Of a stretch of DNA of 55,937 bases, positions 9,401 through 12,400 are shown piece by piece (position 1 is the stretch's first letter; the number at the start of each line of letters is the position of its first letter). This DNA comes from a virus (Duplodnaviria; Heunggongvirae; Uroviricota; Caudoviricetes). A program made the position numbers. The DNA is taken from the IMG/VR virus record IMGVR_UViG_2872192773_000004; one strand, 5' to 3'.

Positions 9401-12400
9401 AAACACAAGTGTTTGAAAGTTTGTGCTTTTTATTACAGGGTGTGGAGAAAAAAGGGGATTATTTGTTTGCGCTTCTTTTGCGAGCTTTGAGTAGTTCTTC
9501 AAAAAGTTTGTTGAAATTTTCAACTCGAGCACGCATCTCTGACAACAGGGCCTTTTGCTCTGACTCAGGCAGTGCGTCGAACAGTTGAAGTAACTCTTTT
9601 TGATCTTCTGTCAGAATGGCTGGCTGATTATCCGGGATCGGTTCGCCTGGTTGTTTATCTTCATCCCCAAAAAGAAGCCAAGTCGGTGAGCACTGAAGCG
9701 CTTGGCTCAGTGCGAATAATCTTTTCCCCGCCGGCTGTGTTTCATCTCTTTCCCATTGAGAAATTGTTACGTGAGCCACTTTGACCAGCTTACCTAATGC
9801 GGCCTGAGACAGTTTTAATTTTTTACGCCTATGTAAGAGGCGAGCACCGAAGGTTTCGTTTTTCATATTAGGGAATTCTAATTTTTCTTGACTTAGGTTT
9901 CTCTACGGCCTGGTTTCCTTAGGAAAATCTAAGGAGCTCGATATGTTGAAAATTGATGCTATAGCGTTTTTTGGCAGCAAAACAAAGCTTGCCAATGCCG
10001 CAGGAGTTAGGTTGGCAAGCATTGCTGCATGGGGGGAACTGGTTCCTGAAGGTCGCGCGATGCGCCTGCAAGAGGCATCTGGCGGGGAACTTCAGTACGA
10101 CCCCAAAGTTTATGACGAATATCGTAAGGCAAAACGACCTGGGAAGGTGATTCATGAAAATCAGGCATGAGCACATCGAATCAGTGCTGTTAGCCTTGGC
10201 AGCCGAAAAAGGGCAGGCGTGGGTCGCTAACGCAATTACTGAAGAATATCTGCGGCAGGGGGGCGGCGAATTGTCTCTGGTACCAGGCAAGGACTGGAAC
10301 AATCAGCAGAATATCTATCACCGTTGGTTGAAAGGTGAAACGAAAGCGCAAAGGGAAAAAATTCAGAAACTGATCCCTGCGGTTCTGGCAATTCTTCCGC
10401 GTGAGCTGCGTCACCGACTCTGTATCTTCGATACCCTGGAACGCCGTGCATTACTGGCGGCGCAGGAAGCGTTGAGTACGGCAATTGATGCGCATGATGA
10501 TGCTGTCCAGGCCGTTTACCGGAAAGCACATTTCAGCGGTGGTGGGTCGCCCGGCGATTCTGTCGTAGTGCATTGATTGAAATTAATCGTGCCGGATTGT
10601 TTTGTTCGGTATCAGTTAAATGTAACGCTGCGAGCGTTACAAGGTGAAAACAAATGGCTTCAAACTGGATAAAGCTCGAGGTTATTACGCCGGATAAGCC
10701 GGAAATATTCAGGCTTGCTGAGATTCTGAATATTGATCCAGATGCCGCATTAGGGAAGGTTATTCGCTTCTGGGCATGGGCGGATCAACAAATGATAGAC
10801 GGTAATGCAGATTGTAACGCTCGCGGCGTTACAAAAAGTGCAATAGATCGCATCACTTTTATGTCTGGTTTTGCTGATGCGTTAATTCAGGTTGGATGGC
10901 TGGTCGAAAATGACGGTGGGCTTTCTCTACCTAACTTTGAACGTCATAACGGAAAAAGCTCTAAAAAACGGGCGGTTACAAACGAGCGAGTAACAAAAAT
11001 ACGCGAACTGAAACGAAAAGGTAACGCTGCCAGCGTTACACAAACGGATCAAAAAGCGTTACCAGTGGAAGAGGAAGAGGAAGAGGAAGATCTAAATACT
11101 GATCTCCCCCTAAATCCCCCTCGCCAAAAACGAGCGTCTAAAAAATTCGAGCCGGAGGCTATTGAGCTGCCCGATTGGTTGCCGGAAACACTCTGGCATG
11201 AGTGGGTCCGGTTCAGACAGGCATTGCGAAAACCGATTCGAACGGAGCAGGGCGATACGGGAACTGGAAAAATTCCGTCAGCAGGGTTTTACACCTGAGC
11301 AGGTGATTCGACACAGCATCGCCAATGAATACCAGGGCCTGTTCGCGCCGAAAGGTGTTCGGCCTGAGACGTTGCTCCGACAGGTTAACACCGTCTCGTT
11401 GCCGGACAGTGCGATCCCGCCAGGCTTCAGGGGGTAACGGACCATGAAAAATATTGCGACAGGCGGCGTTCTGGAACGCATCCGCCGACTGACCCCGCAA
11501 CATGTAACCGCCCCATTCAGAACGGTAGCGGAGTGGCGCGAGTGGCAACTTGCTGAAGGCCAGAAACGTAGCGAGGAGATCAACCGCCTGAATCGCCAGT
11601 TGCGGGTGGAAAAAATTCTGAATCGCTCAGGCATCCAGCCGTTGCACCGTAAATGCTCGTTTGCGAATTACCAGGTGCAGAACGACGGCCAGCGATACGC
11701 GTTAAGCCAGGCGAAATCCATCGCCGATGAACTGATGACCGGGTGTACAAATTTTGCGTTCAGCGGAAAACCTGATACCGGGTAGAATCACTTAGCGGCA
11801 GCTATCGGGAATCGCCTGCTGAAAGACGGTCAGACAGTGATTGTGGTTACCGTGGCTGATGTTATGAGCGCCCTGCACGCCAGCTATGACGATGGGCAGT
11901 CAGGCGAAAAATTTTTGCGGGAGCTGTGCGAAGTGGATCTGCTGGTTCTTGATGAAATTGGCATTCAGCGCGAGACGAAAAACGAGCAGGTGGTGCTGCA
12001 CCAGATTGTTGATCGCCGGACAGCGTCGATGCGCAGCGTGGGGATGCTGACAAACCTGAACTATGAGGTGATGAAAACATTGCTCGGCGAGCGGGTGATG
12101 GATCGCATGGTCATGAACGGCGGGCGCTGGGTTAATTTTAACTGGGAGAGCTGGCGTCCGAATGTTAGCCATTCGAGGGTTGTTAAGTAGTTTCAGGAGG
12201 ATTTATGGCGAAACCTTTTACTCCCGAACAGCGGGAAGAACTGAAGACGCGAATTGTGGAACTCGTGCATCAGGACGGTCGGGTCACGATTCGGCAGTTG
12301 TCCGATGAAACAGGTATCAGTCGTGCGTCTGTCGGTCGCTTATGCATAGAACTGGTCGCAAGTGGTGATGTATATAATTCTGGCTACGGCTTATTCCCGT

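Follow-up and report, generated by a model that had tools for sequence, protein, structure and literature searches.

Introduction

The closest described relatives of the gene considered here are DnaC, the helicase loader of Escherichia coli (PDB 6QEL and 6QEM), and YdaV, encoded by the Rac prophage of E. coli K-12. Lys112 of DnaC is its Walker A residue, and K112R is an ATP-binding-defective DnaC; Walker A and other ATPase mutants are compromised in activating the DnaB helicase, and the isolated DnaC helicase-binding domain (residues 1-75) stimulates DnaB unwinding in vitro (PMC8213410). We analysed the gene at positions 11444-12190 of a 55,937-nucleotide stretch of DNA filed as a virus of the class Caudoviricetes (IMG/VR record IMGVR_UViG_2872192773_000004; the whole stretch is called the window below). 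Judged by homology, this gene is the ydaV of a Rac-like prophage remnant and belongs to the DnaC-type AAA+ helicase loaders, but it is interrupted by a TAG exactly at the Walker A lysine. The TAG is a fixed, clonally inherited allele of Shigella flexneri, and its explanation is very probably that a replication gene of a defective prophage, riddled with insertion sequences (IS), became an ordinary pseudogene during the reductive evolution of S. flexneri.

Two further known systems invite comparison. Shigella reductive evolution is marked by pseudogenes, IS expansion and decayed ipaH-bearing prophage islands, as in the S. flexneri 2a genome. The Oam and Pam amber (sus/am) alleles of phage lambda are laboratory mutants of otherwise intact phages, grown on supE or supF hosts. 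The window resembles the first in its IS density (at least eight in 56 kb), broken integrase, frameshifted structural genes, ipaH gene at a prophage end and fixed nonsense lesions; we see no difference of substance from Shigella decay, the only curiosity being a stop exactly on the catalytic lysine. To the lambda alleles it is akin in having a TAG in a phage replication-loader gene, but it differs from them in that the element is defective elsewhere, the window encodes no suppressor and the allele has become fixed in natural isolates. There is no departure from well-known Shigella genome decay, and in the literature on ydaV and ipaH islands we found nothing specific to a lesion of the ydaV P-loop. 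Beyond its annotation the case has little importance, being a textbook example of prophage decay in Shigella genome reduction.

A DnaC-type loader gene with a stop codon at the Walker A lysine

Translation of 11444-12190 (+) gave a single 249-codon reading frame whose sole break is the TAG at 11783-11785, the gene's own terminator also being a TAG (12188-12190). The coordinates and translation given for it in an earlier note on this DNA proved correct when the frame was re-read. Around the break the translation runs ...NFAFSGKPDTG*NHLAAAIGNRLL... (also read ...FSGKPDTG*NHLAAAIGN...), and the gene divides as follows.

11444..11785 (+): 5' part of the ydaV pseudogene, 113 codons and the premature TAG; covers what corresponds to the helicase-binding domain, then the first part of the AAA+ fold as far as GKPDTG
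11774..11776 (+): Asp111 codon GAT, ancestrally GGT (Gly) by homologue alignment; corresponds to DnaC Gly109, in the P-loop
11783..11785 (+): premature TAG, ancestrally AAG (Lys114) by homologue alignment; corresponds to DnaC Lys112, the Walker A lysine
11786..12190 (+): 3' part of the ydaV pseudogene, codons 115-248 and the natural TAG; Walker B (LLVLDEIG) and Arg-rich sensor region

Protein searches were run with the stop replaced by Lys. YdaV repaired in this way matched E. coli DnaC in the DnaB-DnaC complex (6QEL; phmmer against PDB, E=8e-74) from query residues 2-242 on chain residues 2-241, that is, over the full length and including the N-terminal helicase-binding domain, and scored 66.9 bits against Pfam IstB_IS21 (PF01695; cut-off 24.1), with Bac_DnaA also matched. 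In the 6QEL alignment FSGKPDTG* lies on FSGKPGTGK of DnaC, with the stop on Lys112 and the Asp on Gly109. Both the DnaC-like identity and the placement of the TAG exactly at the Walker A lysine, as the earlier note had them, are therefore supported. In this end-to-end alignment one can recognise the helicase-binding domain, Walker A and Walker B, and the Arg-rich sensor region, although the window gene is a prophage paralogue and not chromosomal dnaC, and differs from it by K112 to stop and G109 to Asp. The Walker A motif GxxGxGK[ST/N] with its catalytic lysine is not intact, reading GKPDTG and then the stop where DnaC and all intact YdaV proteins have GKPGTGK. Walker B and the Arg finger/sensor residues (LLVLDEIG and QIVDRR...R, versus LLVIDEIG and QIVDRR...R in DnaC) are present but lie 3' of the premature stop, and this part of the gene would not be expected to be translated as part of a loader. 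With the Walker A motif and the uninterrupted frame both failing, the gene reads as a pseudogene of the DnaC/IstB family and not as a functional member.

YdaV of the K-12 Rac prophage is an orthologue, 94% identical to the window ydaV at the DNA level, and K-12 and the window have in common the module order repressor, cro-like gene, ydaT, ydaU-like gene and ydaV. They part in that K-12 and about 1450 other E. coli genomes have an intact 248-codon ydaV with GKPGTGK, whereas the window has GKPDTG and a stop, and a frameshifted initiator gene upstream. The ydaV DNA was matched in 1468 of 5426 complete E. coli genomes, and 1452 of those matches cover at least 80% of the gene; among the matches listed, every full-length one is annotated as a single coding sequence (CDS), 'ydaV: ATP-binding protein'. 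A natural gene boundary at the TAG, which would have overturned the claim of a broken gene, is not what these genomes contain.

Ancestral state of the two P-loop codons

The closest record was FDAARGOS_943, labelled 'E. coli' and with an IS600/IS1/IS2-rich genome, whose ydaV is 99.3% identical to that of the window and differs from it at five positions in 747 bp (FDAARGOS_943 to window).

11499 (+): C to A, Pro19Gln
11775 (+): G to A, GGT to GAT, Gly111Asp
11783 (+): A to T, AAG to TAG, Lys114stop
11893 (+): C to T, synonymous
12133 (+): G to T, synonymous

Both GGT and AAG were found in three intact homologues with 90-99.3% identity (FDAARGOS_943, O157 NE1092-2 and K-12 DH1), and at least 1000 contigs have an entry for the intact YdaV protein (P0016). 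When a 171-bp segment spanning the P-loop was used as query, neither P-loop change occurred over a full-length match in any of the 5426 complete E. coli genomes, and the best full-length matches were 98.8% identical, which amounts to exactly the two P-loop mismatches. Alignment with intact homologues, which the earlier note had proposed as a check, thus confirms an ancestral AAG at the TAG, and the neighbouring Gly-to-Asp change that it described is real, GAT at 11774-11776 replacing a GGT present in all homologues.

Distribution of the interrupted allele in S. flexneri

An index of public assemblies has the exact 113-residue product in 437 of its blocks, and all attached names are Shigella flexneri. 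Its cluster entry comprises 330 contigs (for example 'DNA replication protein dnaC [Shigella flexneri 2003036]'), and all 24 of the contigs that were read carry it. At the DNA level, GAT...TAG was present in 10 of 10 complete or near-complete S. flexneri chromosomal loci fetched and likewise in three further M90T-type loci, hence in 13 of 13 loci from different assemblies (L005-L014 and L021-L023). A second allele, with Pro19 but otherwise identical, occurs in S. flexneri 5a M90T and its relatives. Because the exact product recurs in 437 index blocks, with only S. flexneri names attached, the TAG cannot be a read error but is a fixed allele. A sequencing or assembly error behind the TAG, or a natural boundary between two genes at that point, is refuted: the same bases stand in every S. 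flexneri locus read and recur in hundreds of independent assemblies, and of the 1468 E. coli genomes with a match, 1452 have it over at least 80% of the gene, those listed as one uninterrupted CDS.

The window itself is a piece of S. flexneri chromosome made up of fused, decaying lambdoid prophage remnants, which fits the ipaH gene at 53115-54878 (-) and the many IS elements. GenBank already lists the 113-residue fragment in S. flexneri as a short CDS, 'putative replication protein' or 'DnaC'; the right annotation is a ydaV/dnaC-like pseudogene with an internal stop, beside a frameshifted initiator gene, in an ipaH-bearing S. flexneri prophage remnant. The GAT/TAG pair is a possible marker of the S. 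flexneri lineage.

Order of the changes and discordant alleles

To order the P-loop changes, seven hypothetical YdaV variants were looked up by exact sequence. Two observations bear on the history of the changes. First, the alleles found carry both P-loop changes or neither, the full-length Asp111/Lys114 protein being absent from the collection in this exact-sequence look-up, and either order of the changes, or a single multi-base event, is compatible with the alleles found. Second, a contig of 1441 bp (L020, Logan SRR29077668; ydaV at 227-973) combines the S. flexneri markers Gln19 and the 11-bp deletion in the upstream ydaU-like gene (described below) with a P-loop that is still GGT/AAG. With the M90T-type allele (Pro19, GAT/TAG) added, all four combinations of site 19 with P-loop state occur, which no simple linear history allows; a chimeric contig, recombination or recurrent mutation may explain this. 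Nothing contradicts the pseudogene reading itself.

A 113-residue protein with Gly111, labelled S. sonnei (P0018), was considered as a stop-first intermediate and withdrawn, as its four contigs simply end at codon 113/114 and two of the four end in ...GGGA, which fits AAG; P0018 is the intact allele truncated by assembly. In the independent draft contigs labelled Shigella sonnei (L016-L019), all four of which end at ydaV codon 113/114 (...GGTACCGGG[A]), the contig break falls at the same codon as the S. flexneri TAG and yields a spurious 113-residue 'partial DnaC'; an inserted IS or the edge of a repeat may be what interrupts these assemblies.

Gene conversion from a paralogous donor was also considered for the clustered changes and rejected: the window holds no second copy of the 24-mer, with up to three mismatches allowed, and the product of its second DnaC-like gene, the candidate donor, has only 27% protein identity to YdaV. 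A different cluster was noticed in S. flexneri 5a M90T (L023, CP037923), where 13 substitutions and a 1-bp insertion fall within about 70 bp of the 3' part of ydaV (window-equivalent 11965-12037). It is absent from the other S. flexneri loci and could be a recombination patch or a local assembly error.

The Rac-like remnant and the possible effects of the lesion

The genes surrounding ydaV are those of a Rac-like remnant, in which the immunity genes were assigned by Pfam matches on identical loci.

9459..10576 (no single strand): immunity region of the Rac-like remnant (Pfam HTH_3, P22_Cro and YdaT_toxin)
9459-9866 (-): helix-turn-helix (HTH) repressor, Pfam HTH_3
9943-10170 (+): Cro-like gene, Pfam P22_Cro
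10154-10576 (+): YdaT-family gene, Pfam YdaT_toxin
10654-11437 (+): ydaU-like replication initiator pseudogene, by comparison with FDAARGOS_943 (L001; 260 residues)
11444-12190 (+): ydaV pseudogene, by DnaC homology
12205-12627 (+): DUF977 gene
Downstream of the DUF977 gene: QueH, HokD, DUF1367 and other genes

The ydaU-like gene has lost 11 bp between 11249 and 11250, a frameshift that leads to a stop at 11296-11298, the old frame running on to 11437. The junction of this deletion is common to every S. flexneri locus examined. Relative to FDAARGOS_943 the gene also shows a 12-bp difference in repeat number near 11064-11075. In S. flexneri CP026810 (L021; ydaU-like gene at 724-1494), an additional 1-bp deletion (window-equivalent 11116) together with the 11-bp deletion regains the frame, giving an open reading frame of 256 residues with about 44 out-of-frame codons mid-gene. 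A scan of 9300-12700 for promoters and terminators returned counts at or below shuffled expectation.

With the lesions, their ancestral states and their distribution observed directly, we infer a loss of function, one that would have been neutral or mildly beneficial in a prophage no longer replicating. In the S. flexneri lineage ydaV gained AAG to TAG at the Walker A lysine and GGT to GAT three codons upstream, so that its product would be 113 residues without an ATPase, which makes the gene a pseudogene. The lesion is one of many in these decaying prophages, alongside the initiator frameshift, the IS, the portal and J frameshifts and a CAG-to-TAG change in rha, and was passed on by clonal inheritance. 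G111D at an invariant P-loop glycine, P19Q, the ydaU deletion, and the IS and frameshifts point to relaxed constraint or decay, the counts being too small for dN/dS. The earlier note had also taken pseudogenisation as its main interpretation, and the TAG with its Gly-to-Asp companion, the decayed neighbours and the fixed allele all support it.

That both genes of the replication module carry lesions (11 bp lost from the ydaU-like gene, two P-loop changes in ydaV) could instead mean that inactivation was positively selected, a derepressed DnaC-like loader competing for or trapping host DnaB and the knockout of its ATP site and of the initiator benefiting the host. Consistent with this, the closest intact allele differs at the amino-acid level in three places, two of them inside a four-codon stretch of the P-loop, and DnaC ATPase mutants are impaired in DnaB activation (PMC8213410). 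We nonetheless consider selection of this kind, though plausible, unlikely. Chance alone would place two of the changes within 8 bp of each other in about 20% of cases, the premature stop alone would have been enough, with the Asp change adding nothing, and the YdaT-family and HokD toxin-like neighbour genes are still open; moreover, no independent recurrence is shown, the S. sonnei contig ends being assembly breaks and not stops.

The 113-residue fragment contains everything that aligns with the DnaC helicase-binding domain (DnaC 1-75), a domain that works alone on DnaB in vitro (PMC8213410), and is identical across hundreds of assemblies. It might then have been retained in S. flexneri as a functional, ATPase-less, stand-alone helicase-binding domain that binds and modulates host DnaB, in which case the stop at the Walker A lysine would have turned a loader into a small DnaB modulator. 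This we judge very improbable, since recent clonal descent accounts for the identity and the upstream initiator gene of the module is frameshifted. In addition, P19Q and G111D fall inside the fragment and both synonymous changes past the stop, the opposite of what purifying selection would leave, albeit in tiny numbers.

Chance, suppression and the second TAG, in rha

The position of the stop is striking, but a striking position can be chance. In ydaV there are 82 one-step nonsense paths in 69 codons, of which Lys114 provides one, and by simple arithmetic five differences in 747 bp would include one pair within 8 bp about 20% of the time. With Lys114 at one path in 82 and so close a pair at about one in five, a stop on the catalytic lysine is compatible with chance and after-the-fact noticing.

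Only two premature in-frame TAGs were found in the window, the second in a Rha-family gene.

19939..20501 (+): Rha-family gene (Pfam Phage_pRha, 7e-26 once repaired), interrupted by a TAG at 19989-19991

This TAG is present and in frame, as the earlier note had reported, and also occurs in S. flexneri CP026765. Over 19657-25905 the window and E. coli VL7S7 are 99.7% identical in an ungapped alignment; the 19 mismatches include C to T at 19989, by which CAG (Gln) became TAG. The codon is CAG in a Stx1-converting phage too and Lys (AAA) only in the more distant phage ASU11. Hence, where the earlier note had two AAG-to-TAG changes and a lysine expected at both sites, AAG holds for ydaV, in its three homologues, but the ancestral rha codon is CAG and the residue in the nearest relatives Gln. 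Upstream (5') of 19657 the window diverges from VL7S7, and for that reason the open frame running back to 19161 is not the conserved Rha N-terminus.

Since both premature stops are TAG, and a Gln-inserting suppressor would restore wild-type Rha, one may ask whether the two codons are relics of an amber-suppressor background or of TAG recoding, the genes being read through and functional. From codon usage in 10,792 codons of the prophage genes of intact relatives, TAG makes up 44-53% of one-step nonsense mutations, and two of two nonsense codons would be TAG by chance with a probability of 0.19-0.28. No UAG-reading tRNA was found by ARAGORN among the four tRNA genes of the window, the only part of the host genome scanned, their anticodons being CAT, TCT, TGT and TCC. 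The amino acid inserted by the usual amber suppressors is Gln, Tyr or Ser, which would leave the Walker A position without its lysine; a Lys-inserting suppressor would be needed, and Asp111 would persist even then. Suppression could not rescue the elements in any case, disabled as they are by at least eight IS copies and by frameshifts in the ydaU-like, portal and J genes. The natural ydaV stop is itself a TAG, and the genomes in which the allele is fixed are those of wild clinical S. flexneri, not a laboratory phage stock. In view of the tRNAs found, of lesions that no suppressor could mend and of the odds for two TAGs, suppression or recoding, which the earlier note had offered as an alternative, is not supported and can be taken as extremely improbable.

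An automatic search for isolated stops between long open frames did not discriminate, giving 86 hits that were mostly ordinary gene boundaries and off-frame noise; the lesions described here come from homology comparisons.

Insertion sequences and the second lambdoid remnant

Pseudogenisation of ydaV is in keeping with the rest of the window, where at least eight IS copies or fragments lie between 939 and 31371 in the 56 kb and interrupt the integrase, DUF1367, DUF1133 and terS genes.

939-2176: IS600-type
2410-3660: IS911-type
5392-6641: IS911-type
7335-8668: IS2
15202-16466 (-): IS600-type, inside the DUF1367 gene of the Rac-like remnant
17102-18352 (+): IS911-type, splitting the DUF1133 gene, at the junction with the second prophage remnant
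27922 to about 29005: IS600-type, partial
About 30262 to 31371: IS600-type, partial

The two partial IS600 copies lie inverted about a segment of roughly 1.2 kb. The second remnant, also lambdoid, retains intact replication genes, including an O-like gene, and its late genes were compared with those of an intact relative, VL46.

21628-22515 (+): DnaC-like ATPase of the second remnant, intact, P-loop GTGK; 27% identical to YdaV
22512-23903 (+): DnaB-like helicase of the second remnant, intact
25025..25335 (+): four tRNA genes (ARAGORN), anticodons CAT, TCT, TGT and TCC, 3' of the Q antiterminator gene of the second remnant
31370 (+): terS, truncated by IS600, versus VL46
Near 34735-34754 (+): portal gene, frameshifted, versus VL46
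Near 49442-49452 (+): J, frameshifted, versus VL46

No further nonsense codons were found in the late-gene comparisons with VL46 (31370-50215), and an in-frame difference makes the tape-measure gene about 90 codons shorter than that of VL46. The edges of the window and the far prophage end are marked by three further genes.

1-771 (-): tyrosine integrase without its arm-binding N-terminus, beside IS600, at the window edge
53115-54878 (-): IpaH-type type III secretion system E3 ubiquitin ligase with LRR and NEL domains, at the far prophage end
55461-55937 (-): PEBP-family gene that looks like flanking chromosome, at the window edge

The CAT tRNA is annotated as tRNA-Ile in relatives, and the set of four is typical of the rare-codon tRNAs of Stx-like lambdoid phages. 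Between ninE and the ash/rha region, Pfam matches on an identical locus (L006) delimit an HTH gene (102 residues) and a Gp49-family gene at 18992-19560 (-), a pair resembling a putative toxin-antitoxin module of the HigB/HigA type.

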